Assembly (NCBI GenBank): GCA_016839365.1
Contig: JAEOUH010000029.1
Coordinates: forward strand, 15,511 to 79,510
Source of the DNA: Candidatus Hermodarchaeota archaeon
GTDB lineage: Archaea > Asgardarchaeota > Hermodarchaeia > Hermodarchaeales > Hermodarchaeaceae
Reading direction: 5' to 3'
DNA length: 64,000 nt
The notes beneath the pieces are model-generated. The model did no database searches. It saw only the letters and a list, made by a program, of their open reading frames with translations, and was not told the origin of the DNA. Positions 29,813-48,497 of the stretch are shown here, piece by piece. The first letter of the stretch is position 1; each line of letters opens with the position of its first letter. Made by a program: the position numbers and the translations under genes.

Positions 29813-32800
29813 CTAAAGGTTGCGGAGAAGGTTATTAACCTGGACCTGACCTGCACGGCGGGCGGGGAAATAAGCTCCTGTTAGTAAACCCAGAATCACT
29901 AGGCCTAATATTGCCACTAGGAGGCTCAGGGGGTAGATAATGGTGAAAGGTACAATGAACGGTTGGGGAAATAATTTGATTATAACAAACATAAGAAGCC
30001 ATGAGAAGTTAATTCCAATTACGACGCTGAAGAAGAACGCCAACAGGATGATGCTCACAAATTCCACTAACACCATTGAGGTAACATCACGACGAGAACC
30101 TCCAAGGGCTCGCATGATGGCATACTCAGTTTTTCGTTCCGCAACGATGGTACTCACAAAAACTGTTAGAGCGACGATACTGATTGCGAGTGAAGCGAGA
30201 AAACCCACCGAAAGTAATCCTATAATTCCTTGTGAAAACAGGTAACCATCGGGATAGGCTTCTTCTAAGTCAAAGGTGAATGGTGACCAAGTGCGATAGA
30301 CAAAGCCAAGGGACTCAATGGCGTTTTGGGCAGTTTGGATATCACTTGCAGAGTCTATCCCCGCAATGAATGAATTGGTAGTATCCATTATAGAGTAAGG
30401 ATCGAATAGTGGAATTTCAACAAGAAAATAATGTTGGTGGCAGAGGGCAAATGGTTCGTTCTTTTGAAATCCAAATCCAGGATTTGAAGTGATTGATGCT
30501 TGAGGATCTGAGGGGTTCGAATAACCAAGACCTGGGGCCTTGTACATAATCCCGACAACATCAAATTCTTTGACTTCGACTATGAAAGTTCGCTGATCGC
30601 GAACGATAACGGGAATTGTGTCACCAACCCTCCTATCATACAAGGAGGCAAGGTGGGCCGGAAGAATGATACCATTATAATTTGCTGCTAAGCGGTCTAA
30701 CACTGTCTGATAATCTTCGCCCATCATGCTCGCTTCGTCCCAGTTTCCTACTTCTGCATAGGCTGTGGGGTTTACGGCAATGAGTTTGAAGTTTGAATGT
30801 GCGATTTCTGCTTGCACTTCAATGAAAGCGGTAGCAGTATGGATTGCTGATAAGGAGGTTATGTCATTCACGCGATCGGCAACGACCAGTTCAGTGTAAA
30901 TACGGATATCGCCACCCACATAGTAGTTGACCTGTTGATCGATATGATTATGGTAAGTTTGTGCCTCTACGGCAGAGAATATAGTAATTGAGAACGTGAG
31001 TAACAAGATCATTAGTAGCGGAACAACTCGGGTCCGTTTCACCGTCAGGGTCTTGCTGAAGAGTTGGCTCTTCTGGCCAATAGCGGGCGTAAATATCTTC
31101 GAAAACGTTGCGATTGCAGGTCGAATAATGCGGGCAACGGCATCAGCAAGAAGTATCCAAAAACTAACAATCAGAATGAACACAATCAGTGCTATCTCTA
31201 AAGAGAGAGGAAAGATCAAAACGAAATAGACTAAAGGAATAGTAAGAAGGATGACACCAATAGCATATGCAAATTGGATTCGTGGATTATGTTTCCATGA
31301 TGAATTATTCTCGCGAAGCTCGGCATATACTTCGGATTTTAAAAACGACCGAGTTTTAAGGAAGAGGTAGGCTGCGGCAGGTAATATGCAAACAACCCCA
31401 GCAAGGCCCCAAAAGACCAAATTGATGGTTGTCAAACTGATATGGTGGAGAAGACTCCCAAGATTAAAGATTAGAAAGGAGGTGACAGAAGGTATCAAGC
31501 ATCCTAGAAAAATCCCGAGAAACCCTCCAGCTATTGTTCCGAGAAGAGCTAAGATGAAAAATTCAACCATGAGGATTGAATAGAGTTGCTGATAACTTGC
31601 TCCACGGGATCTTAGGATTGCTAGTTCAGAACGGCGATTTGACAAAAACAGGGATGCCGTAAACGTTGTTAACAAGACTGATAGTATCACGATTGGTAAT
31701 ATTAGGAAAACCATTGTTTGGCGTTCATAATAGACTGTGACATAATCTTGCAAGAATTGTAGTTGGTCACGGCCACCAATCGTGACGCTATATTCTAATT
31801 GGATATCTGTATATAACCGATCTAAGACTCCGATTATAGCCTCTAGTCCAGCAGCATAGAGAGGGGCAGGTGTAATTTCGACAAGTAATCGGGGAACCAT
31901 TACTTGCTCAGCGATCTGATCCAGGGTTTCAGTACTGAATATATCACTTGAAAGAATTACGCTGTCAAACCAACCAAATACGATTTCAGAAGCGTAGATT
32001 GGCCCCCAATTGAGCCGACTTTGTGAGGGAAAGGCCTCCTGAAGCGGTTCAAAGCGTGATATAACTTCATAAATACCGGCTATTCGTAATCCGTTGATGT
32101 TCGTCGGATCAATTGCTCCAATTGTGCTTGTAACTTGGTAGTCCCGCGCCACAGACAAATCAATTACACTTCCCACTATAACATGACGGCCCATGACCTG
32201 GTTTAGATCTTCAACAACATTTTGGCTAACAAGTACTTCACCGGGATCCAGGTGGAACTCGCCATCGATTATTCGAAATGACCCTGAAGCGCGTTCTAGA
32301 AAGGTATTATCAGTGAAAAAGACTTGACAGTCTTTGATTCCCCGTTGGTAAGGATAGGGGAGATATCGGTCTGTTGGATCAAGAGTGGTTGCATCAATCA
32401 ACGCGATTGAACTATAAACCACATGTGAGACTTGTGTTGTAACCTGCGTATCGACAAACTCCTTTACAGGAAAAATAGCGTGGGGGTCGTTGTTAGTTGG
32501 ACCTTGGACGCAATAGTAATGAAATGATAATTGGGCGAAATAATCGTCAATGGCAACTCGAGCTCCAGTTTCAGTCCACACAAACACAGAACTGACCAAT
32601 GCCACTCCAATCATAATTCCAATGAGTAGACTGATTGAACGCCGTTTATGTCGTCGAATCCCATGGGCAACATATCTGGAGATATAGAGGTTTCGACTTA
32701 CGCCGCTATCTTTTAGTCCTCTACGGAATCTAGCTGAACTTGGCTCATCCGTGTTCAGGGATTCAACATCTGTTTTTGTGGTTCGAGCCAAAGACTTCAA

Positions 32801-32818
32801 GACTCCTTTTTTCATCAT
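29813..32818 (-). CDS. Large FtsX/MacB-family ABC permease
   Basis: Two FtsX domains (RRSELAILRSRGAS; RKTEYAIMRALGGS), two large extracellular loops, PARRA near the C-terminus. Confidence 0.9.
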   Translation of the reverse strand: MMKKGVLKSLARTTKTDVESLNTDEPSSARFRRGLKDSGVSRNLYISRYVAHGIRRHKRRSISLLIGIMIGVALVSSVFVWTETGARVAIDDYFAQLSFHYYCVQGPTNNDPHAIFPVKEFVDTQVTTQVSHVVYSSIALIDATTLDPTDRYLPYPYQRGIKDCQVFFTDNTFLERASGSFRIIDGEFHLDPGEVLVSQNVVEDLNQVMGRHVIVGSVIDLSVARDYQVTSTIGAIDPTNINGLRIAGIYEVISRFEPLQEAFPSQSRLNWGPIYASEIVFGWFDSVILSSDIFSTETLDQIAEQVMVPRLLVEITPAPLYAAGLEAIIGVLDRLYTDIQLEYSVTIGGRDQLQFLQDYVTVYYERQTMVFLILPIVILSVLLTTFTASLFLSNRRSELAILRSRGASYQQLYSILMVEFFILALLGTIAGGFLGIFLGCLIPSVTSFLIFNLGSLLHHISLTTINLVFWGLAGVVCILPAAAYLFLKTRSFLKSEVYAELRENNSSWKHNPRIQFAYAIGVILLTIPLVYFVLIFPLSLEIALIVFILIVSFWILLADAVARIIRPAIATFSKIFTPAIGQKSQLFSKTLTVKRTRVVPLLMILLLTFSITIFSAVEAQTYHNHIDQQVNYYVGGDIRIYTELVVADRVNDITSLSAIHTATAFIEVQAEIAHSNFKLIAVNPTAYAEVGNWDEASMMGEDYQTVLDRLAANYNGIILPAHLASLYDRRVGDTIPVIVRDQRTFIVEVKEFDVVGIMYKAPGLGYSNPSDPQASITSNPGFGFQKNEPFALCHQHYFLVEIPLFDPYSIMDTTNSFIAGIDSASDIQTAQNAIESLGFVYRTWSPFTFDLEEAYPDGYLFSQGIIGLLSVGFLASLAISIVALTVFVSTIVAERKTEYAIMRALGGSRRDVTSMVLVEFVSIILLAFFFSVVIGINFSWLLMFVIIKLFPQPFIVPFTIIYPLSLLVAILGLVILGLLTGAYFPARRAGQVQVNNLLRNL

Positions 32819-32822
32819 ACTT

Positions 32823-33839
32823 TCATAGCGCTGTTCCGCAGGCTGGGCAGGTCACTCGATTTGAAGTAACAAGTTTACCACAAATCCGACAGGTGACCAG
32901 TTTCACTTCGACTGCTACAGCATTCTCAATCGTTGAAGGGGTGAGAATTATCCGTCCATCATCCACTTCGACTTGGAATCGGCGTGGATGTCCGATTTCA
33001 CGTAAGATATTTTCAGGCAGGGGGAGCCTATCTTGGTTATCAACTTCTAGTACTCGAGTCCTTTCAAGCTGTTTAAGGTGAACGCCCGAATCATGAGTCC
33101 CACTGATTATTCCATCACGCAGTTCAAGTGTTCGTCTAGCCTTTGAGGCGATCAATTGGCTGTGGGTTACAATGAGGAACGCCGTTCCATAATCTTCGTT
33201 GAGTTTTTTGAACAGGTCAAGAATTTCTTCAGCATTAATAAGATCAAGATCACCGGTCGGTTCATCTGCTAATATTAATGCAGGATTATTCATAAGAGCA
33301 GAAGCTATTGCAACACGTTGGCGTTCGCCACCGGAGAGCTTGGCGGGAATATGATTCATTCGCGATCTCAAGCCCACAGATTCTAACAATTCTTCTGACC
33401 GTTGTTCACGCCAAGTTTTGGGAAAGCCTGCAATCCGTGCGCTGAGTTCCACATTTTGTTTTGCAGTCATGTGATGAAGCAAATTATCCACTTGAAAAAC
33501 GAAACCTATGAACCCTCGTCGAGCATTTGTGATAGTACGTTCATCTAACTTTGCAATGTCTTGTTTGATATTGGACCAATAAACCTGACCCGCACTTGGA
33601 CGCAGAGTTCCTCCAAGTAAATTTACTAAGGTGGTCTTTCCACTCCCTGAAGGTCCAACAACTGCGACTATTTCGCCTTGGAATATTTGGAAGGATAAAC
33701 CACGTAAAGCTACAGTTTCAATCTCACCTGATTGATAGATTTTGTAGACATCGTGAGCCATTAGAACTAAATCTTCTGGGATCTCTGCAAACTCTTCTTC
33801 TTTGATAAGACCGCTGATGAGATTATTTCTTAAGGTCAT
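32823..33839 (-). CDS. LolD/MacB-type ABC ATPase with C-terminal AbrB-like domain and zinc ribbon
   Basis: GPSGSGKT, LSGGE, ADEPTG; tail VDNQDRLPLP...GRIILTP then CRICG...CPACG. ATG 33839 has a GAAGGTGA RBS. Confidence 0.9.
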   Translation of the reverse strand: MTLRNNLISGLIKEEEFAEIPEDLVLMAHDVYKIYQSGEIETVALRGLSFQIFQGEIVAVVGPSGSGKTTLVNLLGGTLRPSAGQVYWSNIKQDIAKLDERTITNARRGFIGFVFQVDNLLHHMTAKQNVELSARIAGFPKTWREQRSEELLESVGLRSRMNHIPAKLSGGERQRVAIASALMNNPALILADEPTGDLDLINAEEILDLFKKLNEDYGTAFLIVTHSQLIASKARRTLELRDGIISGTHDSGVHLKQLERTRVLEVDNQDRLPLPENILREIGHPRRFQVEVDDGRIILTPSTIENAVAVEVKLVTCRICGKLVTSNRVTCPACGTAL

Positions 33840-33855
33840 TTTTTCACCTTCTAAT

Positions 33856-36741
33856 TTACAAATTCCGTAGAACTTTGCCGACATTGGTTCGACCCGCACG
33901 GCGGGCGGGGATATACGTTCCAATACTAATTCCAATGAGCACAACCCCAAGAACTGCAAGTAATAATACCCAAGGAATTCCCAGTTGAAAAGGAATCACA
34001 TATGGAAAGGGAAAGAGGCCTAGTAGGATAAACATTGAAAGCCAAGAGAAGAAGAACCCAAGAAGTAATGCCACTAAGAAAGATGTGATGATGAGCCCTG
34101 CAAATTCGCCTACTATTATTGCACTTATTTGTCGCTGAGTACTCCCCACAGCACGCATAATAGCATATTCTGTTTGCCGTTCGCGCACAATGATTCCGAC
34201 AAAGAGAATGAGGGCAATAATGCTGATAATGACACAGGCTAAGAATCCTATAGACAAGAGGCTTATCACCCCTCGATTGAATAGATAGCCTTCTGGATAA
34301 TCTTCTTCTAACGAGTAGGTCATGGGAGAGTATACTGCAGTTGGGAAACTAAGATCACTTACTTGTTGATGGACTTGAACAATATCCACGTTTGCATCAA
34401 CTTCAGCTAAGATTAGCCGTGTATTAGTCATATTTCGATTGAGTAGGAAATCGCTATTAATTATTGCAAAAAGCTGCGATGATTGGAATTGAAATCCATT
34501 GGTAGGATCTGGAGGTCGAGAAGGATCATTGGGATCGAAATAGCCCAGTCCTGGTGCACTGCGACCTATCCCAGTAATTAGAAATGAAGTATCGCCCAAT
34601 ACTCCACCTCCTTGCTGATGAACTGAAATGACTATCCTGCTTCCAATAGTTCTTCCAAGAACTCCTGCCAGAGTGTTGGGAACAATAATTCCGTCGGTGT
34701 GGTTTTGCAAACGTTGAAGAGCCGCAAACGGATCTTCTCCAACCATGCTTGAGAGGTCCCAGTTGCCGGTTCTAGCATAAGATTCAACATCAATTCCGTA
34801 AAGCGTCAATGAAGTTGAACCAAGGAGCCCATATGTTGCTATAAATGCAGAAGCCGAAAGGATGCCAGGAATAGATAGGATTTCACTTGTATGATTATGA
34901 TGAATTGAATTACTTTCGACTCGCAAATCCCCTCCCATGAAATAGCTAACCTGTGTGAAGGCGTTATCTTGAACTGTTTGAGCTTCGACAACAGCGAATA
35001 CTGAAATTGAGAAGGTAAGGGTTAAAATTAAGAGAAGTGGAACGATTCGTTGACGACGGGTTCGCATACTCTTCTCAAAAATGAAAGACTTCTCCCCAAA
35101 TAAAGGTCGGAACCCACGGGTTACTCCCGCTATGATTTGTCGAACGATACGAGACCCAATATCGCTAAAAAGCGCCCATACTACGACTGCATAAATGAAA
35201 AGGATTGTCGCTATTAATGGAGTTACGGGGAGAAAGAGTAAAGCAATGATAAGAAACCCTAGCAACGCAAACACAGCAATGGCGTAAATGATTGTAATGC
35301 CGAGGTCAGCTTCAACTTGAGGGGTTGAACCTACCATCGCTTCGTATATTTCAGCCTTGAGAAAGCTTCGAACAGAAATCAATGTGAAGCTCAACGGGGG
35401 AATAATGCATGTGAGAAATGCGACTAGCCAGGTTAGGGGCTCAAGTCTGACATTTACAAGGTAAGTGTAAAAGATTGATGGATTAAATTGTAAGAACCCT
35501 GTTGAAGCAGGGATTAGCGAGCCAACGAGAATGCTGAGAACTACCCCTAAACCAAGGGCTATTGTTCCAATAATGATGAATTCTAGTATGAAGGCTGCGT
35601 AGAGTTGGCGGAAACTGGCGCCTCGAGCACGTAGTATCGCCACCTCCGATTTGCGACCACTCAGAAAGATGTTGGTGGCAAAGATAGTCAAAAGAATAGA
35701 GAGTAAGATGGTTGGTAAGGTTAATACAGCCATTGTTCTTCGCGATTGGCTCGCTGCAATATACTGCTCCAGAAGAACAACTTGATCCTCACCCCTCACT
35801 GTGATTCTCCCTGTGAACTGTAGTTCCAATTGAGCTTGTAATTCCCGGATCTCAGTGGGTACGTTATCCAATCCAGTCACTGCGATTTCTTGAGGATTTA
35901 GCTGGACAAGGAGTATTGGAAAGAGAGAATTGGCAGTAAGGGTATCCCTCTCAGTTGAATTCAGTTGGGTATAATGCATGATAATGCCATCATTCCAACC
36001 AAAGACCTTTTCTTGAATAGATCCGAGATGATTTACACGATAAGTTCCAAGAGCTGATGAGAAGAGGAGAGAGTTGCTCCTAGTAATATTGTAAATACCC
36101 ACAACTAGGAGATTGGTTGTATTGAAAGGTTGAATATCACTAAATGTTAGTGGTTCTTGGTAGATTGAAGCAATTGTAACATTGATGTAAGATCCAATCG
36201 TTATGGTTTGATTGAGAAATTCACTTGCGTCCTCAATGACTCGTGTACTAACTAGACATTCACCAGGAGCTAATTGGAAAACGCCATCGAAAGAAAATTG
36301 GGAAACTACACGGGTAAGAAAGGCATTTTCAACGAAAAAGGCTTGGAAGTCCTTAATTTCGCGTGTATAGGGATAGGGGAGGTACGTAGTTGATGAGTTC
36401 CAGTCAGTTCCATTTAGAAAACCTATAGACTGATAGAAGATGTCTGAGTCTCGATAAGCGGTTTGTTCTCTACACCAATTCTCAACCTCATTGAGTAGCT
36501 GGGTATCGATAGGGAAGGTGTATATTTGTTGAATTCCATATTGGTAGGTATTTGAGTTAAAGTAATCAAGTGTTGCCACCTGTGAATCGGTATCAGTCCA
36601 CACAAAAACAGATGCAACTAATGCAACCCCGATCATGATACCGATGAGTAAACTGAAGAAACGTGCTTTGTTCTTCCAAACACTATTACCCACATAGCCT
36701 GCTACATACAAGCGACTCCCTGATGAATTTGGAGAAACCAC
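33856..36741 (-). CDS. Large FtsX/MacB-family ABC permease (paralogue of 29813-32818)
   Basis: Same architecture; shares SLLIGIMIGVALV.SVFVWT, YLPYPY, APGLGY and YP.GYLF. Confidence 0.9.
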   Translation of the reverse strand: MVSPNSSGSRLYVAGYVGNSVWKNKARFFSLLIGIMIGVALVASVFVWTDTDSQVATLDYFNSNTYQYGIQQIYTFPIDTQLLNEVENWCREQTAYRDSDIFYQSIGFLNGTDWNSSTTYLPYPYTREIKDFQAFFVENAFLTRVVSQFSFDGVFQLAPGECLVSTRVIEDASEFLNQTITIGSYINVTIASIYQEPLTFSDIQPFNTTNLLVVGIYNITRSNSLLFSSALGTYRVNHLGSIQEKVFGWNDGIIMHYTQLNSTERDTLTANSLFPILLVQLNPQEIAVTGLDNVPTEIRELQAQLELQFTGRITVRGEDQVVLLEQYIAASQSRRTMAVLTLPTILLSILLTIFATNIFLSGRKSEVAILRARGASFRQLYAAFILEFIIIGTIALGLGVVLSILVGSLIPASTGFLQFNPSIFYTYLVNVRLEPLTWLVAFLTCIIPPLSFTLISVRSFLKAEIYEAMVGSTPQVEADLGITIIYAIAVFALLGFLIIALLFLPVTPLIATILFIYAVVVWALFSDIGSRIVRQIIAGVTRGFRPLFGEKSFIFEKSMRTRRQRIVPLLLILTLTFSISVFAVVEAQTVQDNAFTQVSYFMGGDLRVESNSIHHNHTSEILSIPGILSASAFIATYGLLGSTSLTLYGIDVESYARTGNWDLSSMVGEDPFAALQRLQNHTDGIIVPNTLAGVLGRTIGSRIVISVHQQGGGVLGDTSFLITGIGRSAPGLGYFDPNDPSRPPDPTNGFQFQSSQLFAIINSDFLLNRNMTNTRLILAEVDANVDIVQVHQQVSDLSFPTAVYSPMTYSLEEDYPEGYLFNRGVISLLSIGFLACVIISIIALILFVGIIVRERQTEYAIMRAVGSTQRQISAIIVGEFAGLIITSFLVALLLGFFFSWLSMFILLGLFPFPYVIPFQLGIPWVLLLAVLGVVLIGISIGTYIPARRAGRTNVGKVLRNL

Positions 36742-38706: not shown

Positions 38707-40143
38707 ATGCTTGAAAAACTCCAAGCTGCTGTCTCGTTGGGTGAAAAATTAGGGGCAGATTTTGTCGAAGCCCGTTTTGATGATTTGACCTTGCGCACGT
38801 TACGTCGAATTAAGACGAAGAAAGACGATACCTGGAAAGACATCATGTTAAAGTCTCGAACAGGAACTGGAATTATTTGCTACTTCGATGGCACCCCTGG
38901 TTATTCCTTTACCGCAAGCGAGGATCTAAAGGACATTGAAGAAACGGTTACTCGCGCTTATGGAATGGCAAAAGCCGCCTCTACAGCAGCCACCCTAAAA
39001 CTCGACTTTGATAGAAGACCTACTGTAAAAAGTCGGTCCAGTGATTCACTTTCTGTGAAAATACATCCAAAGACCAAAGGGCAAGATTACAAGATGGACT
39101 TGATCAACCGAATGGTAGACACGGCCTTTGATGTTGGAAAGGAAATTGAAAACATTACAGGCGCTTATGGTGAACTGACTGGTCAAAAGCTCTTCACCAA
39201 TAGCGAAGCATCAATAATCAAATGGGAATTTCTTCTGGTTGACATGATGTGCCGGGTCACTTCCAAAGCGTCCTCAGGTGCTCTCGTCTTTGGATCTGAA
39301 CGGAATGCAGGAAGCCTTGGGCTTGAAGCATATAATCGAAAAGGAAGCACGCCAGAAGAAGTCGGGAAAAAAGCTGCAATGTTTGCAGCAGAACAAATTC
39401 AAGCGAAACCCTGCCCAGCAGGGAAGTTTGCAACCCTCATTGATAATGAACTGGCAGGAGTTCTAGCTCATGAGAGCTTTGGCCACCTCAGTGAAGCTGA
39501 TTTCGTTACCATGGGGGCCTCACCCTTAGCAGGGAAAATCGGTAATATGCTTGGAACTAAACATGCGACAATTGTAGATGGAGGGAACCCCGATATCAAA
39601 AAGGAGGGAGGTATGTGGTTACCCTTCGATGATCAGGGCATTCGAGCAAATATGACAACGATTCTTGACCGGGGAATATTCAAACATTATCTCCATAACC
39701 GTGGCACCGCACAACAATTAGAGCAGGAACCAACAGGTAATTGCCGAGCAGTGCACTTCGGTTTCATGCCCATTCCGCGTATGACAAATACCTACTTCAA
39801 GCCAGGGGATCTTACTGAAGAAGAGGCCCTTGAACAATTAGGAACGGGTATTTACGCGATTCAAACCTCAGGTGGACAGGTGGAAAGAGATGGGAGTTTT
39901 CTGTTTAAGGCTGACAGAGGATATTGGGTTGAACATGGCGAAATCCAACACCCAATCCTTGAAGTCTCATTATCTGGCAACATCTTGGAACTCTTACAAC
40001 ATATTGAAGGTGCTACACGTGACATCGGTTTATGGGGCTCGTACTTTGGCGGATGTGGGAAATTCGGGCAATATCCACTCCCCGCAGGAATTGGAGGACC
40101 TAAACTTCTCATTCAAAATGTAACCTTTGGAGGAAAAGCATAG
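38707..40143 (+). CDS. tldD: TldD metalloprotease
   Basis: HESFGH (HExxxH), FDDQG, PRMTNTY, GCGK.GQ. Confidence 0.9.
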   Translation: MLEKLQAAVSLGEKLGADFVEARFDDLTLRTLRRIKTKKDDTWKDIMLKSRTGTGIICYFDGTPGYSFTASEDLKDIEETVTRAYGMAKAASTAATLKLDFDRRPTVKSRSSDSLSVKIHPKTKGQDYKMDLINRMVDTAFDVGKEIENITGAYGELTGQKLFTNSEASIIKWEFLLVDMMCRVTSKASSGALVFGSERNAGSLGLEAYNRKGSTPEEVGKKAAMFAAEQIQAKPCPAGKFATLIDNELAGVLAHESFGHLSEADFVTMGASPLAGKIGNMLGTKHATIVDGGNPDIKKEGGMWLPFDDQGIRANMTTILDRGIFKHYLHNRGTAQQLEQEPTGNCRAVHFGFMPIPRMTNTYFKPGDLTEEEALEQLGTGIYAIQTSGGQVERDGSFLFKADRGYWVEHGEIQHPILEVSLSGNILELLQHIEGATRDIGLWGSYFGGCGKFGQYPLPAGIGGPKLLIQNVTFGGKA

Positions 40144-40159
40144 GAGGAGGTTCCAAGGT

Positions 40160-41551
40160 ATGGAATTCGATGAAATCAAGGATGCCTTATTATCTGAAGT
40201 TGATACAGGCTTAAAATTTGCGAATTCTTTGGACAAAGCGGCTGAATTTGAAATCTACCTTTACTATCGAAGTAAATCGAATGTTGAAATTAAGCAAGGC
40301 GTTGTCGAAGCGACGGACGGCATAGTCGCAGGCACCGCTGTGCGTGCCACCCGAGATCAGAAACTAAGTTTTGCATCCTCAAGTGGCATCTCATCTAATC
40401 ACGTCAAAAGGGCCTTGCAGGATGCCATTTCGAGCTTGAAAGCAACCTCTGAAAAAGATACTCGGTTTAAGGGATTTTGCGAACCCAAACCTCCAGGAAA
40501 AGAAGGTAAATTCGCCCCTGAGATCTTAGAGCTTACAACTGACGACTTGGTAGGATATTCACTCCAATTGATAGGTAATATGACTAAGGCCAATGGAAGA
40601 CTTCTAGCCGCTGTTGGATGTGAGAAGACCTGGGGTGGCTTCGCTATTGGGAATTCACTGGGCCTTCAACAGGCTTCTACATCGGCACATAATGCCTGCA
40701 GTGCCTATGCAATGGCTATTGATGGGGAAGAACGAAGGACCGGTTCAGAAGAACTAGTTACCCGCGATAAAGCCTTAGACGTCTCTGGCATAGGCGAAAA
40801 AGCGGCAGAAAAGGCCCTTAGCCTACTTGGTGCCAAGAAATTGGGGCAAACGACAACCCTTCCCACATTATGGGTGCCATGGGCTGCAGCGAGTTATATC
40901 CTTTCAAGTCTTCAGCAGGCTACCAAAGGGTCTACTGTTGTGGAGGGCTTATCACCTCTCCGGGAAAAACAAGGTGAAAAAATTGCTCATCCTAATTTTT
41001 CACTAGTTGATGATGGTCAAAACCCATTAGGAATTGAGACTGAAGCCATTGATGCTGAAGGCCATCCCCAAGGTCGAACTGTGATTGTTAAGAATGGAAT
41101 GCTGAAAAGCTTCATTTTTGATTCATATTATGGACGGATTGCTGGAAAAGCTTCGACTGGTAATTGTGCACGTTCCGGAGGACCGTTTGGTTCACGTTTG
41201 CCATATGAAGATGCACCTTCGATTTTTAGTAAGAACTTAGAAGTGGCAGCAGGAAAGCAGTCGGAGGAGGAGCTAATCGCATCCATTGATGGTCAGGGAT
41301 TGTTGATTACTGACATCCCCATCGGAATTTTTCATAGCTCGGTTGAAACGGGTGAATTTTCAGCTGTTGCTAGTTCAGTATTTCTCATCGAGGATGGCGA
41401 GAAAAAACGACCATTGGAACCTGTGTCAATTGCAGGAAACTTCTACAAGGGGCTAGAACAACTTCTCGGTGTCGGTAATAACATTGAAATCACTTCACTC
41501 TTTGTAACAACTCCCAGCTTACTCATCGATGGGATTTCGGTAACGGGGTAG
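40160..41551 (+). CDS. pmbA: TldE/PmbA protein
   Basis: DAEG, STGN, GEFS, IAGN; no HExxxH; follows tldD with a GGAGG RBS. Confidence 0.88.
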   Translation: MEFDEIKDALLSEVDTGLKFANSLDKAAEFEIYLYYRSKSNVEIKQGVVEATDGIVAGTAVRATRDQKLSFASSSGISSNHVKRALQDAISSLKATSEKDTRFKGFCEPKPPGKEGKFAPEILELTTDDLVGYSLQLIGNMTKANGRLLAAVGCEKTWGGFAIGNSLGLQQASTSAHNACSAYAMAIDGEERRTGSEELVTRDKALDVSGIGEKAAEKALSLLGAKKLGQTTTLPTLWVPWAAASYILSSLQQATKGSTVVEGLSPLREKQGEKIAHPNFSLVDDGQNPLGIETEAIDAEGHPQGRTVIVKNGMLKSFIFDSYYGRIAGKASTGNCARSGGPFGSRLPYEDAPSIFSKNLEVAAGKQSEEELIASIDGQGLLITDIPIGIFHSSVETGEFSAVASSVFLIEDGEKKRPLEPVSIAGNFYKGLEQLLGVGNNIEITSLFVTTPSLLIDGISVTG

Positions 41552-42744: not shown

Positions 42745-43356
42745 GTGAGTATAATGGCAACCGAGAAGCCACCTGAAAAGGATTACGAAACTGAAGTATC
42801 AAAAGCAGTAAAGAGCATTCAAAAAATAGTCAAAGACGTTATTAAAGAACTCGAAAATCAGCGCGAACTCAATACAACTGCAGAATCGCGTATTGCAGAA
42901 TTAACTCGCGAACTCGCTAACAAAACAGCAACCAACGAGCGATTAGAAAGAACCATTGGTGAGTTGAAGGAATCAGCGGATCAGACAACAGATCTGATGG
43001 TGAAAAACAAAGCACTAGAATCTGAGCTCAACGCAATCAAGACTCAATTAGAAAAAATGTCCGACACCTACAAGGAATTAGTTACAGAACAGGAAGCCAC
43101 AATTCCCGTTCAAGAATTGCTAGCCCTATACATCGCATTGCTAGAGGATGTCTTTTATGCCCAACCACACGCAAAGACTCTGTTCCTTTTGCACGGTCGG
43201 AAGAAGGAAATGACCCGCGATGAAATCACTAAGACTGCAGGACATGAAGCGACGGCAATTAGAAAAGCGCTGGGAGACCTTGCCCGGGCGAATTTAATCG
43301 ATTACAATGTAGAAACCGGTAACGCGAAATTAAAGAAGCGCCTTTATCCGACTTAG
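42745..43356 (+). CDS. Coiled-coil protein with C-terminal winged helix-turn-helix
   Basis: Roughly 100-aa heptad-rich region, then PHAKTLFLLH...MTRDEITKTAG....IRKALGDLARANLIDY. Confidence 0.75.
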   Translation: MSIMATEKPPEKDYETEVSKAVKSIQKIVKDVIKELENQRELNTTAESRIAELTRELANKTATNERLERTIGELKESADQTTDLMVKNKALESELNAIKTQLEKMSDTYKELVTEQEATIPVQELLALYIALLEDVFYAQPHAKTLFLLHGRKKEMTRDEITKTAGHEATAIRKALGDLARANLIDYNVETGNAKLKKRLYPT

Positions 43357-44363
43357 ATCTTCATATCTGTCAACAACTGGTTGAAACGCGGTAAATTGTG
43401 GAGATTCGTAGTTAATGCGCAAAGATAGCGACTGAGTTCCGTGTGGATGATGCGTTCCGAATCAGACAAGGTTTTACTATCCGTTGCCTGATCAACGAGT
43501 TCTCGGGCACTGCGATGGACTACACCCACAACGCGTTTTTCGACGTCAGCGGGTCCCCAATCAAATGCACGGAGACCCCGCTTTGCCTCACTAATACTCG
43601 CTTTTACTGAATTATTTTGCAACGCATTAGCAAGTTGATCATAGAATTCGCTCGCTGTTCCCGCGATTTGATTTTGTTCTCGACTGGTTAAGTCGTTTCC
43701 AAGCGTTCCTCTTCGCGACAGTTCTTGTAAGAGACCAGCACAGGGGGCTTCAGCAAGAAATCGTCGAATAAGGTTGTAAAACACTTGCCCGGCAATATGT
43801 GTGACTTCGCTTATCACTTCTCGGGGTTCACTATAACGGAACAGTTCTCGACAGGACTCAAACCAGTAATTGGGTAGCAAAAGATGGCTTCGACTCGAGT
43901 ATTTATCCAGTAGTTGCTGAAGGAGAGGAAGCTGTTTTTCCGGATCGAAAATGGAAAGGCGCCGCTGAAAAGGTTTTCCAGTAAGACCAGCGAGATCCGC
44001 ACTCGCTTCAGTGATAAGCTGCTGAGTGGTTAAAAGAGGTTCCTTCAAATCCTCTTTTAGGATCGCCTGTTCTCGAGATTTCGAATACGAATCCAGTGCA
44101 GTTTCTATACGCTTGAGATGGGTGAGAATCACTTTAATCGTATCATCTACAAATGAGGAGCCAGATGTTGCTGAGTTATTTCCCGAGTTGCCCAGAGTTC
44201 GCTTCACGGATTCTCGCACCGCTCGAACTCCACTTGCGAGCTGGTCAATTTGTTTCGACTCTAAACCGCCTTCAGCTTCAATGGTGATGAGGGCATGAAT
44301 CAGGGTGGAGTTGACCGTGGTGAGTATGAGGATACGTTCCAGCAATTCTTCGGCCGTAATCAA
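43353..44363 (-). CDS. Hypothetical all-alpha protein, third gene of the tubulin operon
   Basis: 336-aa ORF; TTG start 27 nt after the tubulin stop, with a GGGGAG RBS. Confidence 0.75.
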   Translation of the reverse strand: MITAEELLERILILTTVNSTLIHALITIEAEGGLESKQIDQLASGVRAVRESVKRTLGNSGNNSATSGSSFVDDTIKVILTHLKRIETALDSYSKSREQAILKEDLKEPLLTTQQLITEASADLAGLTGKPFQRRLSIFDPEKQLPLLQQLLDKYSSRSHLLLPNYWFESCRELFRYSEPREVISEVTHIAGQVFYNLIRRFLAEAPCAGLLQELSRRGTLGNDLTSREQNQIAGTASEFYDQLANALQNNSVKASISEAKRGLRAFDWGPADVEKRVVGVVHRSARELVDQATDSKTLSDSERIIHTELSRYLCALTTNLHNLPRFNQLLTDMKI

Positions 44364-44390: not shown

Positions 44391-45740
44391 CTACTTCATT
44401 TCGAGATTGAACAATTCGGCAACATCTCGAATCGCAGCACGGAGAACTTCTTCGCCGACGCCTTTTGATTTCTTGAACCAACCACGTCTAAGCGGTGATG
44501 GCCCTGCATGGAGATCAACCAGTTCAGTCGAAGAGTTTACTAAGTCTTCGATTTCGGGAATTTGTGGTAGCCCCAGCAGGAGGAGTAAGTCGGAAGGGTG
44601 CACGTCATCTTCATAAGAGACAAAACATGGAGTAATGGCGGCACCTTTTGCTGTATAGGGGCGGAGAGCCTGTTTGATATGGGGATCGTATTCGGCTCGA
44701 GCATATTCACGGGAACCAGAAAAGGTATAATATGTTGAAGAAGCGGCTGGTTCAGACCCGATTTCAGCGAAGCTACAGTGTTCAACGGCATATTTGACCA
44801 TAGTCTTCAATTGCATGGCAATGTTTCCTGCTGATGGAATCAGGCTGACGTCGGTATACAGACAGGGCACAACGATGGGGTCCAGTTTCCGGGCATAGTC
44901 GGCAATATCAGTGGTTGGAAATACTTCCTTGCCAGGTTCAACAACCCCAGGACTAAGCATGTGCTCGACGAAGCGCAGGGCTAAGGGATTCACTAATTCC
45001 ACGAAAGCAGATTCTTGAGCCTTAGAGGCTTCATTTGCACCATCAACGGTAGAAGGAACCATCCCTTCAACATCGGTTACTTTAGCTACATCGATTTGCA
45101 ACTGCTGTTGAAGAAAATCTGCTACTTCGCCTTCACGCCAAGCTAGAATCCGTCGAAGCATTGCACGGTTACTAAGGAGACAAACAAGATCTGCACCTCG
45201 GTCTTCAAGCTGACCACGGAGGAGCTTGGAGAGTGACCACATGGTATTGAGAGCTTCTGACGTTTGGTCCTTGAATGGAAGAACCGTGAAAACGTAGACG
45301 AAGATGCGGCGTCCCTCCTCTTCTTGGAATCGCTGTTTAAGGATCTCAATGAGTGCAGGAGCACCGCCACACCCAGTCCCTCCACCAGACGAGGTAAAGA
45401 TGATAAATCCAGAAACCCCCTCAAACCCTAATTGGGTGAGCTGGCCCATGATGACATCTTTGAAGTCGTGCACATAATTATACCCGTCAGTGAAGTTGCC
45501 TCCACACCCAATATCAGAGGCACCATAAAGGAGTGTGTTTTCTTTAGGAATGTCATATTTTTGTCTGAGTTTTTGAATATCTGAACGGTCGGTGTTCATA
45601 CACAAGTACCCGCGAATACGTGGTGGTAGCATTCGTTCTCGGGCTTGTTTTAGATAGGCCCCAACGAGGTTGCTCCCGCATTCGCCGATACCGATGGCAA
45701 ATACTTCCGCAACTCGTGGTCCTTCATCTGAGGCTTCCAT
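44391..45740 (-). CDS. Tubulin/FtsZ-superfamily GTPase (divergent, tubulin-like)
   Basis: T1 IGIGECGSN, T2 MNTD, T3 GCGGNF, T4 GFIIFTSSGGGTGCG, T5 VLP...E.LN, T6 SNRAM, T7 TDIAD. Confidence 0.92.
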   Translation of the reverse strand: MEASDEGPRVAEVFAIGIGECGSNLVGAYLKQARERMLPPRIRGYLCMNTDRSDIQKLRQKYDIPKENTLLYGASDIGCGGNFTDGYNYVHDFKDVIMGQLTQLGFEGVSGFIIFTSSGGGTGCGGAPALIEILKQRFQEEEGRRIFVYVFTVLPFKDQTSEALNTMWSLSKLLRGQLEDRGADLVCLLSNRAMLRRILAWREGEVADFLQQQLQIDVAKVTDVEGMVPSTVDGANEASKAQESAFVELVNPLALRFVEHMLSPGVVEPGKEVFPTTDIADYARKLDPIVVPCLYTDVSLIPSAGNIAMQLKTMVKYAVEHCSFAEIGSEPAASSTYYTFSGSREYARAEYDPHIKQALRPYTAKGAAITPCFVSYEDDVHPSDLLLLLGLPQIPEIEDLVNSSTELVDLHAGPSPLRRGWFKKSKGVGEEVLRAAIRDVAELFNLEMK

Positions 45741-45752
45741 GGTAGTTCAATC

Positions 45753-48497
45753 CTACTTTTTCTTGGCTTTTTCCTTTTGGTCGATCATAACGGCTGCGAG
45801 TTCTCGAGCAGCCCACGTGAGGTAATTAGCGGTGTCCTCACGCGAATAGGTTTCACGAATACGTTTCTCGATTTCGTTAAGTTGACGATTGCGTTCAGCT
45901 TTTGGCGATGCTGGATTAAAATCTGCGAGGAATACGCGAAGGGCTTTGTGCCATTCGTCGAGTTCTTTGATTTTTTCCAGCCACTGCTGTTCTAAACTGC
46001 GAATAGTGGTGAATATATCAATTGATTCAGGAAGAGAATTAACCGTTTCTAGCTTTCCACGGAGATTTTGTAAGGTATCAAGTGGGAAGATAAGTTTGCT
46101 AAATTCTTGTGGGCGAGCATCATAAACTCGTTTTATCGTTGAATAGTATTCGGTGGTATTTTCCAGGAGTTTTTCGAATGCCGCTTCGGTTTTTTGTTCC
46201 ATGTTTCGAAGAATGTCCAAAACACTATTTTGAGCCTCAACAAGTGCCATACAGATTTCAAGCACCGTATTCACTTGCTCTGCATCTAAAGCATCAGGAA
46301 CCCGGGCGAGAAGGTCCTTCAGTTTAACCACAACCTCTGCTTGCCCATGCCGTTCAAGGAGGTCGGTGACTGAATTGAGATTTCGCCAGACTTCGTTGGC
46401 TTTGGATCGAATATCCTTAAGCAACTTAGCATCAGTGAGTAATTCCCGAAGTTCATCAAAACGATCAGGGAGTTCTTCGATATTAGCAGGCAATTTTTCT
46501 TGAAGTTTCATAGACTGCTTGACATAGGTATCAGTTTTGATACCCAAGGTGACCGAGACGTTTGTAAGTTCTGAAAAGGCTTTAATCTGCTCATTCAAGG
46601 CCTGGTTGAAGTAACCAACAATGCGTTTCTCAAATACCTCTACGATATGATGGGCTTTGCGAATGGCTTCTTCGTAGGTTTCGCTGGCAGGAACTACGGT
46701 GGTCAGTTCTTGGATAGCAGCTTGGACTTCGGAAGGAATAGTCAATCCCATTCCCAGGAGTTTTGAGACTGCTAGGCGTAGCTTCAAGTCAAGTCGATAT
46801 TTGAGGTTTTCAATAGCGTCTTGTGCCTTATAGAGAGCATCACCCTGGGCTTCGCGAGCAACCTCTTCAATTTCCTCAAAACTCTTACTAGCACGAATAT
46901 GCTTAATTGCTGTTTCCAAGAATTCTTCCATTGTTTTGAAGGATTCTCGATAGGTTGGTTTGATGACCTGGATTTCTGCTAAGAGAGCATTGAGTTCTCG
47001 TTCCCATGCCTTGCGGAATAAATCAATACGGTTTTCTACATGCTTGTGGAGTCGTGCATAAGCCTCAACTAGCTCAGGGAATGAAATATCCGTGGTTCGG
47101 ACAGGAGCAGGAGCAGCGCCCATTGTGGTTTTATCAAGAATGGTACTGGCAGTTTCAGAGATACGTACTAGCAACGCTTCTTGGGTTCGAATTTCCGCCA
47201 GTAATTTTCCATGCTCTTCAATTATTTGTCCGGAAGTTTCTGAGTAAATCTTGACAAGATCCTTAAGGTCAGCCTTATTGAGGGGTTTTGTTTGTTTTTT
47301 CACAAATGCCTCAAGTTCATTGGAATTCGGCAGCACCTTTCGCTTTACGGCCCGCGTTAAATCATCGAGAATTCGGCTAGTTTCGGAACGAAGGGCTGTT
47401 TCGACATTGGTTTGGTAGGCTTGTAGCCGCTCATAGCTAGCAATGAGGGCCGCTAGATCAGCTTCCTTGGGGACTTCAGGGGGTATTGGTGGAAGGAAAC
47501 TGGCTTCGTTGGAGATATTGGCACTTGCCAGTATCCGATTAAGGTTATGAGCAAATTCGAGTAGTTGACGTCTAATCTCACTGGAGGCTTTCATCACCTG
47601 TCCGTCATATTGTTGTACCAAGCCGAGAAGCATCGTCAGATTCGCTTCGCCTTCAAGTTGCTTCATAAGCCCTTCAAGGGATGTAGAAATGGCCATAGGC
47701 ACATTCAAATTCAAACTACGAGCGGTTTCCAAAAGGGCTAGCGCGGATTCGATGCTAGCTTGTAGTTTCGCCCGCAAGGTATCGACTACTTCCCCGCGTC
47801 GGCTGGTGAGATATTCATGCTCTTGCCGCAGGGTCTTGCGAATTTCGAATAGTTCCGGAATTGTATTAATATCAACGGAAGTCCGCTCCGCGCTAATTGA
47901 CACATCACTAGTATCTATGCCTACAAAGCGATCATAGGTCTTGATAAGGGCCCGATTTTGTTCGAGCATATCATTCGTTTGTTTAAGAAGCGCTTCACGG
48001 AGCTGCTTTGAAAGCCCCTCCAAATTAGACACAAACCGGGAGATAACAGGTAACACGACGGCATATTTCCCTCTCGTTGAAGGGAATGAGAGATTGTTGA
48101 GGTCTCGCCCTAATTTGATGTCAAAGGACATGATGGTGGCCTTCAACTCCTCGAGTTCCACCATGTAATTTCGAAGCAATTCGATGTGAAGATCTAATGA
48201 CCGATTTAGACCTTTATCGAGTTTGGGAAGTTCTTTATCGATTTGTTTGACTAGACGCCGCTTTTTGGGGCTTAGAGACCAGCTTGTTTTCGCATCCCGA
48301 TCAAACCCTTCAATCGCCAAAAGCTCCCTTCCAACATCTTCTAGGGAGGTCTCAACTTCAGAGGGGAGACCGCCTAATATTGTTTGACACTTAGAACTAA
48401 CATCCTTGAGCATAGAGTAATACTTGCGCAGTTCTTCCAATGTAGTCACGATTGGAGCCCCCAGGGTAAGTGGCTTACATCCACCTTTCTTATTCAT
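45753..48497 (-). CDS. Large alpha-helical repeat/coiled-coil protein, first gene of the tubulin operon
   Basis: 914-aa L/E/K/R-rich ORF with no TM segment or P-loop; stop 12 nt before the tubulin ATG. True start may be GTG 48449. Confidence 0.82.
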   Translation of the reverse strand: MNKKGGCKPLTLGAPIVTTLEELRKYYSMLKDVSSKCQTILGGLPSEVETSLEDVGRELLAIEGFDRDAKTSWSLSPKKRRLVKQIDKELPKLDKGLNRSLDLHIELLRNYMVELEELKATIMSFDIKLGRDLNNLSFPSTRGKYAVVLPVISRFVSNLEGLSKQLREALLKQTNDMLEQNRALIKTYDRFVGIDTSDVSISAERTSVDINTIPELFEIRKTLRQEHEYLTSRRGEVVDTLRAKLQASIESALALLETARSLNLNVPMAISTSLEGLMKQLEGEANLTMLLGLVQQYDGQVMKASSEIRRQLLEFAHNLNRILASANISNEASFLPPIPPEVPKEADLAALIASYERLQAYQTNVETALRSETSRILDDLTRAVKRKVLPNSNELEAFVKKQTKPLNKADLKDLVKIYSETSGQIIEEHGKLLAEIRTQEALLVRISETASTILDKTTMGAAPAPVRTTDISFPELVEAYARLHKHVENRIDLFRKAWERELNALLAEIQVIKPTYRESFKTMEEFLETAIKHIRASKSFEEIEEVAREAQGDALYKAQDAIENLKYRLDLKLRLAVSKLLGMGLTIPSEVQAAIQELTTVVPASETYEEAIRKAHHIVEVFEKRIVGYFNQALNEQIKAFSELTNVSVTLGIKTDTYVKQSMKLQEKLPANIEELPDRFDELRELLTDAKLLKDIRSKANEVWRNLNSVTDLLERHGQAEVVVKLKDLLARVPDALDAEQVNTVLEICMALVEAQNSVLDILRNMEQKTEAAFEKLLENTTEYYSTIKRVYDARPQEFSKLIFPLDTLQNLRGKLETVNSLPESIDIFTTIRSLEQQWLEKIKELDEWHKALRVFLADFNPASPKAERNRQLNEIEKRIRETYSREDTANYLTWAARELAAVMIDQKEKAKKK

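Follow-up and report, generated by a model that had tools for sequence, protein, structure and literature searches.

Asg.Tub, a tubulin/FtsZ-superfamily protein of a Hermodarchaeota archaeon: conserved operon partners, predicted structure and affinity to CetZ and tubulins

Introduction

How tubulin arose from FtsZ/CetZ-like ancestors is still to be settled in studies of eukaryogenesis. Santana-Molina et al. (2023, PMC9871819) described Asg.Tub as a group of Asgard archaeal paralogues that switches between a placement with tubulins and one with CetZ. The hidden Markov model (HMM) of its C-terminus matched no other family, its genomic neighbours were coiled-coil proteins, and in large trees the group stood stably between CetZ and tubulins; its authors judged it nearer to CetZ (PMC9871819). 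We found no structural or biochemical work on this family in the literature. Here, we analyse an Asg.Tub gene carried by a stretch of 64,000 nucleotides from a Candidatus Hermodarchaeota archaeon (assembly GCA_016839365.1, contig JAEOUH010000029.1, positions 15,511 to 79,510), which is called the window hereafter and whose own coordinates are used throughout. The gene encodes a 449-amino-acid (aa) protein, first noticed in an annotation made from the sequence without database searches (the first-pass annotation).

Our preferred reading, to which we give a probability of roughly 0.58, is that Asg.Tub represents a CetZ-like branch of the superfamily, specific to Asgard archaea, which retains the full GTPase apparatus and forms a filament bound by two proteins encoded in the same operon. 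Added here to the published description are a wider census of the family (126 of 400 Asgard species genomes), predicted C-terminal helices resembling H11-H12 of tubulin, a three-gene operon kept at 24 of 25 loci and a distribution that does not overlap with that of true tubulins.

Family membership and distribution

Relatives were collected by a word-indexed search over 5.8 billion proteins and by an exhaustive HMMER scan over 1.84 billion representatives at 50 % identity. The former returned more than 120 full-length clusters with 49-93 % identity to the window protein, and all named sources were Asgard archaea (Thor-, Hod-/Heimdall-, Hermod- or 'Promethearchaeota'). Nearly all of these proteins are annotated as hypothetical, the copy of Heimdallarchaeota LC_3 being annotated as CetZ, and PF00091 is the sole Pfam domain in the precomputed lists of 120 members. 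The HMMER scan recovered two full-length relatives only, plus one metagenomic protein (P0125) related over most of its length. Beyond the latter, matches were confined to residues ~12-200 with E-values above 1e-8, and the C-terminal 250 residues had no sequence relatives outside the family among the representatives scanned. Since the matches outside the family stay within the GTPase domain, the family is tight and isolated in sequence space.

Four Asg.Tub members are listed in the supplement of the original description, including OLS26264.1 of Heimdallarchaeota LC_3 (PMC9871819). The latter is identical to P0086 of our family alignment over the printed N- and C-terminal stretches, and P0086 falls in the same clade (support 100/99) as the window protein, which comes from another genus and is 50 % identical to it. 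Judged by sequence, the window protein is a member of the published Asg.Tub, or 'CetZ-related Asgard archaeal clade'. The distinct clade proposed in the first-pass annotation is thus monophyletic and isolated, but it had already been published under this name.

The family profile matches 126 of the 400 Asgard species genomes. Its presence is near-universal in certain families (14/18, 4/4, 21/22 and 5/5 genomes, and 76/89 in three families pooled) and absent from others (0/31 and 0/135). Asg.Tub is almost always single-copy, a second paralogue being restricted to one genus (G067, also G057, G061, G068, G072-G074 and G077), where it scores ~690 bits against ~770 for the first copy. At the one locus of this second paralogue that was examined (L065:4520-5845, minus strand, in G067), the gene has its own large upstream partner and no detectable downstream partner.

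The genome to which the window belongs, 84 % complete, encodes one Asg.Tub and one canonical FtsZ, the latter on another contig, and yields no match to PF03953 (Tubulin_C). Five other genomes bearing the family each encode one or two FtsZ genes and one Asg.Tub. Genes with a Tubulin_C domain occur in 8 of the 400 genomes, distributed over four families. They were never found together with Asg.Tub in any genome or family-level group (e.g., G137, G047 and G297-G303 on one side, G000 and 125 others on the other), a non-overlap to be read as a pattern and not as a statistic, related genomes not being independent. Asg.Tub is also missing from G137, the only large closed genome carrying four Tubulin_C genes.

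Conservation of the GTPase apparatus

Residues 12-195 of the window protein match the Tubulin/FtsZ GTPase domain (PF00091) with an E-value of 1.7e-18 and 68 bits against a cut-off of 33, and Pfam searches with E-values up to 1 detected no Tubulin_C, FtsZ_C or PF21011 domain. Conservation was assessed by aligning 42 members, 49-93 % identical to the window protein and with a mean column identity of 59 %. Every motif quoted in the first-pass annotation is found there, most of them in invariant or almost invariant columns. The T1 loop reads G-I-G-E-C-G-S-N, with G17, G19, E20, G22 and N24 invariant and C21 kept in at least 90 % of the sequences. T2 is N49-T50-D51, of the FtsZ type, and T3 is G78-x-G80-G81-x-F83-x-x-G86-Y87; the tubulin-like touches suggested for T1 and T3 are borne out. 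T4 reads GGGTGCG, with G119-G123, G125 and G126 invariant and C124 present in at least 90 % of members, so that the superfamily signature GGGTG[ST]G carries a Cys in place of Ser/Thr; the corresponding motif is GGGTGTG in canonical Asgard FtsZ and GGGTGSG in Asgard tubulins. The T5/H5 block comprises L154-P155-F156, E162, N165 and W168.

The T7 loop, P275-T-T-D278-x-A-D281 followed by L286-D287, has P275, D278, D281, L286 and D287 invariant, and both acidic residues expected at T7/H8 are therefore kept in the window protein and its relatives. In the tail, W421, F422, K426, G427 and L443 are invariant. The window protein ends 5 residues past its last helix, which leaves no room for an acidic tail, as had been noted. 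Overall, the sequence motifs indicate that the apparatus for GTP binding and hydrolysis is kept complete in Asg.Tub.

Operon partners

The Asg.Tub gene lies between two genes on the same strand: the open reading frame (ORF) of the upstream partner ends 12 nt before its start codon, and that of the downstream partner begins 27 nt past its stop codon. We compared 25 loci, namely the window, four distant loci obtained by exact protein look-up and twenty taken from the species genomes. In 24 of them the three genes share one strand and run from upstream partner through Asg.Tub to downstream partner; the single exception is a second paralogue accompanied by the large partner only. A homologue of the upstream partner stands at the same position in 25/25 loci and one of the downstream partner in 24/25, with E-values across loci of 1e-12 to 1e-123 for the former and 1e-9 to 1e-39 for the latter. 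The partners are only ~20-29 % identical to the window copies, whereas the Asg.Tub proteins of the same loci are 44-93 % identical.

The upstream partner is a helical-repeat protein of ~900-1200 aa and the downstream partner an all-alpha protein of ~300-360 aa. Pfam gave sub-threshold matches of coiled-coil type only, and profile searches against PDB sequences gave nothing better than an E-value of 0.18. Comparing a 19-sequence profile of the 914-aa upstream partner with itself gave matches off the diagonal that extend over 400-640 columns (P 6e-10 to 7e-5), at shifts of roughly 80-150 and 310-350 residues. The AlphaFold2 model of the downstream partner is all-alpha, with a C-terminal domain (residues 131-336) whose predicted local distance difference test score (pLDDT) is above 90, and has no clear fold match. 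A hydrophobic segment long enough to span a membrane was found in none of the three operon proteins.

A complex of Asg.Tub with the downstream partner was predicted with a score of 0.60, the best of three controls reaching 0.00, which lends weak support to an interaction; at least 95 % of contacts recur between runs, and the partner has a pLDDT of at least 78. Of 80 solved complexes, 58 reached the mark set for this score, as did 2 of 110 mismatched pairs; only 7 of the 80, but both passing mismatches, scored 0.60 or less. Given the deep synteny, the prediction modestly raises the odds that the two proteins bind each other.

Small GTPase genes of the Arf/Ras family are located near the operon in two distant loci (L003:102-1037 and L005:4532-5113, both on the plus strand), in the second directly upstream of the large partner. 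None was seen beside the operon in the window.

Predicted structure and C-terminal helices

The window protein was modelled by AlphaFold2 with the family alignment as input (pLDDT 84, predicted template modelling score 0.85). The model presents the two-domain fold of the superfamily, with a GTPase domain, the core helix H7 and an activation domain. Its H1-S2 connection is short, helix 19-34 being followed by strand 42-49, which together with the N-T-D of T2 bears out the FtsZ-like character attributed to this region in the first-pass annotation. Some 35 extra residues had been postulated between H6 and H7, and alignment and model show ~30-45 extra residues before the long H7 (237-262), in a segment (~195-236) modelled at low confidence (block pLDDT 50-56) with helices at 205-214 and 218-226.

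The C-terminus is modelled confidently (block pLDDT 80-95) as helices 395-411, 416-426 and 430-443. Tubulin chains superpose on the model through residue 446-447, corresponding to tubulin residues ~417-434, with 350-362 aligned residues, while the three solved CetZ structures reach 323-326 aligned residues and stop aligning at model residues 409-418 (CetZ1/CetZ2: 409-413), after H11. On these aligned ranges, the last 30 residues of the model are covered by tubulins and by no solved CetZ chain. The helices that had been proposed to overlay tubulin H11-H12 are thus recovered in the model, and an H11-H12-like hairpin is predicted that is consistent with the tubulin overlay.

Profile comparison of the C-termini alone (hhalign) qualifies two further claims on this tail. 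Against tubulin, the last helix falls on H12 in the register that had been proposed, the family G-V-G-E-E-V-L ... lying on tubulin G-M-D-E-M-E-F ..., but the match is weak (21 columns, P 7e-4, probability 26 %). Against CetZ, the S10-H11 region and the last helix align over 49 columns (P 2.4e-5, probability 76 %), and the CetZ C-terminus lacks nine residues that surround the conserved W-F of Asg.Tub. Because the last helix aligns in this way, CetZ sequences have a distal helix too; in the crystal structures it either cannot be superposed or is not resolved. The claimed absence of H12 from CetZ consequently holds only for the parts resolved or alignable in three crystal structures and is weaker than had been assumed, and the hairpin may not set Asg.Tub apart from CetZ.

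Affinity to CetZ and tubulins

Sequence and profile searches of the PDB rank CetZ first (4b46 at 8e-12, 3zid at 2e-8 and 4b45 at 2e-7), followed by tubulins at ~3e-5 and FtsZ at ~2e-4. With alignments of 22 CetZ sequences and of 25 tubulins (eukaryotic, Asgard and verrucomicrobial), the Asg.Tub profile matched CetZ over 374 columns, spanning residues 6-441 (E 1e-27, probability 99.8 %), and tubulin over 133 columns of the GTPase domain only (E 2e-10). By this measure, the overall similarity of Asg.Tub is far closer to CetZ than to tubulin. NCBIfam holds no model for Asg.Tub or CetZ, and its best match was FtsZ TIGR00065, with 27 bits against a cut-off of 295.

The phylogeny was inferred from 95 rows: 19 members of the family, 18 canonical CetZ labelled by the scores of HMMs built for this analysis, 17 Asgard FtsZ, 23 tubulins (Asgard sequences retrieved through Tubulin_C matches, Verrucomicrobia, eukaryotic alpha and beta) and 18 unlabelled orphans from the exhaustive search. 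TubZ, PhuZ, artubulin and gamma, delta and epsilon tubulins were not deliberately sampled, and some orphan rows may be such proteins. The maximum likelihood (ML) tree (IQ-TREE, LG+C20+F+G4 with posterior mean site frequencies, 387 columns) was rooted on FtsZ. FtsZ (100/100), tubulins (100/99) and the Asg.Tub family (100/99) each formed a clade, and canonical CetZ a basal grade. A clade supported at 98/95 unites Asg.Tub, thirteen orphans and all tubulins without any canonical CetZ group, so strongly supported nesting inside CetZ or FtsZ was not observed.

Among the orphans, three metagenomic proteins (P0125, P0135 and P0136) form the sister group of Asg.Tub (100/93). The gene of P0125 (L071:7001-8374, plus strand) lies downstream of an SMC-ScpA pair and of dihydroorotate dehydrogenase genes. 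Both Asg.Tub partners are missing from this locus, the downstream ORF being unmatched by the partner HMM, and the operon therefore seems specific to Asg.Tub proper. A further clade of the same supergroup as Asg.Tub and tubulins (P0149, P0150, P0155 and P0159; 100/100), with proteins of 410-450 aa, could be artubulin- or Halo.Tub-like.

This topology invites a second reading, in which Asg.Tub is a 'pre-tubulin', the closest surviving sister of bona fide tubulins, and its homologous H11-H12 already bound partners before microtubules existed. We regard it as possible, though clearly less probable than a CetZ-like branch. The 98/95 clade speaks for it, but a tree uniting CetZ, Asg.Tub and the orphans in one clade without tubulins is not rejected by the approximately unbiased (AU) test (delta lnL 15.3, p 0.22). 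When the orphans are removed, Asg.Tub is still sister to the tubulins, with a value of 93 in the Shimodaira-Hasegawa-like approximate likelihood ratio test (SH-aLRT), but this join is flagged as long branches meeting. The model is better covered by tubulin than by CetZ chains, and W421-F422 ... G427 ... L443 parallel the tubulin W-Y ... G ... L with the last helix in register with H12; against this stand the short profile similarity to tubulin, the low probability of the H12 match and a T2 motif, an H1-S2 loop and a missing Tubulin_C match that are all CetZ/FtsZ-like. The published trees, which place the group stably between CetZ and tubulins, speak for this reading, whereas their authors concluded that it is nearer to CetZ (PMC9871819). 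The sequence data thus do not establish a position of Asg.Tub as sister to tubulins, and the expectation that the protein would be informative for tubulin origins depends on a position in the ML tree that the AU test does not tell apart from one on the CetZ side.

Proposed mechanism and remaining alternatives

Returning to the CetZ-like branch, Asg.Tub would bind GTP through its loops T1-T6 and polymerise head to tail into homopolymeric protofilaments, in which the T7 loop (D278, D281) would enter the nucleotide pocket of the next subunit and promote hydrolysis, as in FtsZ, CetZ and tubulin. Lateral contacts of the microtubule type would not be expected, because the long H1-S2 loop of tubulins is missing. 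Two or three surface helices of the C-terminus would fold back to a position like that of tubulin H11-H12 and offer an outer docking face, and the two operon partners would be the likely ligands of the filament, acting as bundlers, scaffolds or regulators. A cytoplasmic structural module, devoted to cell shape or internal organisation, seems likelier than a division ring, since a separate canonical FtsZ is kept and no membrane segment is predicted in the three proteins. A GTP-driven homopolymer with partner-bound outer helices is most likely when catalytic motifs, fold and synteny are considered together, and the 'non-microtubule filaments' and 'self-activating homopolymer' of the first-pass annotation are reasonable proposals given the motifs.

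Several points weigh against this picture. In no member of the family do polymerisation, GTPase activity or the binding of partners go beyond inference. The tubulin-side position in the tree fits poorly with a plain 'CetZ-like' label, and PF21011, which is carried by 120/120 of the CetZ relatives listed, is unmatched in Asg.Tub. The hairpin comes from one AlphaFold model compared through aligned ranges, and the segment 195-236 is poorly modelled. Finally, complex predictions in the score band obtained here are more often wrong than right unless the pairing is likely beforehand.

An improbable alternative is that Asg.Tub forms no filament and works as a GTP-regulated monomer or dimer, a mere subunit of a complex with its two partners, as do divergent non-polymerising members of the superfamily. 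Its obligate place in an operon beside two large helical proteins, the insert that the family carries before H7 and the Cys replacing the usual Ser/Thr in GGGTG[ST]G would all suit such a role, but the elements for longitudinal assembly and assembly-dependent hydrolysis are all invariant, including both acidic residues of T7. The protein has also evolved slowly (identity of 49-64 % between classes, compared with ~20-29 % for the partners), as fits a polymer that assembles with itself and has many surfaces under constraint. Least probable of all is a specialised division protein that would add a third FtsZ-like component to the ring of the lineages carrying Asg.Tub. The FtsZ-type T2 and the best NCBIfam match, far below its cut-off, can be invoked for it. 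Against it stand one or two canonical FtsZ genes elsewhere in the genomes, no division or SepF-like genes nearby in the window, about two thirds of sampled Asgard species lacking Asg.Tub, and the absence of both an FtsZ_C match and a flexible, conserved peptide at the C-terminus.

Genomic context in the window

The features of the operon are collected in Table 1. The Asg.Tub gene is surrounded in the window by genes for peptidases, a transporter and metabolic enzymes.

Table 1. Coordinates in the window of the Asg.Tub gene, of regions of its product and of the two operon partners.
Feature	Position	Strand	Basis
Asg.Tub gene (P0001), 449-aa tubulin/FtsZ-superfamily GTPase	44391..45740	-	ORF and Pfam
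N-terminal GTPase domain, residues 12-195, loops T1-T5	45156..45707	-	Pfam match, invariant motif columns
Family-specific H6-H7 segment, residues ~195-236, two short helices and variable linker	45033..45158	-	AlphaFold2, indel-rich alignment columns
T7 loop and start of H8, residues 275-288, with invariant D278 and D281	44877..44918	-	Alignment; after core helix H7 (237-262) in the model
C-terminal helices 395-411, 416-426 and 430-443 (predicted H11, H11' and H12)	44412..44558	-	AlphaFold2, structural alignment
Upstream operon partner, 914-aa helical protein with internal repeats, no known family	45753..48497	-	Conserved synteny
Downstream operon partner, 336-aa all-alpha protein, no known family	43353..44363	-	Conserved synteny

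A gene convergent with the 3' end of the operon (42745-43356, plus strand) encodes a 203-aa protein with a coiled-coil N-terminal half and a weak winged-helix C-terminus, for which matches of the TFIIE_alpha, TrmB and MarR types were all under cut-off; it is not kept beside the operon at the other loci. The stretches 29813-36741 (minus strand) and 38707-41551 (plus strand) encode two very large permeases of the FtsX/MacB type (1001 and 961 aa), in tandem with a 378-aa ORF between them, and a TldD/PmbA metallopeptidase pair. These permease and peptidase genes are ordinary and without relation to Asg.Tub.

Significance for the origin of tubulins

True tubulins are rare in Asgard archaea (8/400), and Asg.Tub is far commoner (126/400) and well conserved. 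If its C-terminal helices correspond to the partner-binding H11-H12 surface, Asg.Tub would provide a tractable, single-gene and probably homopolymeric system, which could be used to date the face by which tubulin binds motors and microtubule-associated proteins, and to picture the cytoskeleton of the Asgard lineages lacking tubulin. A more speculative and rather unlikely extension is that Asg.Tub is the stem lineage of true tubulins within Asgard, its H11-H12 surface and partners being the earliest known system of a filament with associated proteins, later replaced by tubulins. Replacement in a few lineages would then explain why the two are never found together. Even as a simple divergent CetZ, Asg.Tub would define a three-protein cytoskeletal module, as yet uncharacterised, in those archaea most closely related to eukaryotes.

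Comparison with known systems

The window protein differs in nothing from Asg.Tub as published, with which it shares the restriction to Asgard archaea, the unmatched C-terminus, the coiled-coil neighbours and the unstable position between CetZ and tubulins.

FtsZ belongs to the same GTPase domain family and has in common with Asg.Tub the NTD motif in T2 and the P-F motif after S5. The TIGR00065 score, however, is far below the cut-off, FtsZ forms a separate clade (100/100) and the genome carries its own FtsZ on another contig; moreover, the C-terminus of Asg.Tub is predicted to form folded helices, whereas FtsZ ends in a linker and a conserved peptide.

Bona fide tubulins (OdinTubulin, 7evb-7evl; AtubA/B, 9f6t and 9hxc; BtubA/B) cover the predicted fold end to end, including the H11-H12 region. 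The Cys of T1 is found as in the GQCGNQ of beta/gamma-tubulin, the aromatic residue and G-Y of T3 resemble the consensus GAGNN-x-A-x-GH, both acidic residues of T7 are present, and the ML trees group the two families, though a placement on the CetZ side is not rejected. In contrast to tubulins, Asg.Tub has no Tubulin_C (PF03953) match and is similar over the 133 columns only, its T2 is N-T-D where the tubulin alignment has an invariant D-L-E-P, its H1-S2 loop is short, it lacks an acidic tail, and it is encoded by a single gene and not by an alpha/beta pair, never in genome families with Tubulin_C genes.

The best relative in sequence and profile is CetZ (Haloferax volcanii CetZ1/CetZ2, 4b46/4b45; Methanosaeta thermophila CetZ, 3zid). 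Asg.Tub nevertheless stands outside all canonical CetZ groups in the tree, lacks PF21011 and has NTD in T2 where the three solved CetZ sequences have NT or NS followed by a non-acidic residue. It also has an extra segment before H7, dedicated operon partners of its own and ~30 more C-terminal residues modelled as folded helices that solved CetZ chains leave uncovered, and it is Asgard, whereas the named CetZ relatives recovered were all of euryarchaeal type (Euryarchaeota, Methanobacteriota and Hydrothermarchaeales). With CetZ, Asg.Tub shares a short H1-S2 loop, a similar S10-H11 sequence and a presence alongside FtsZ instead of in its place.

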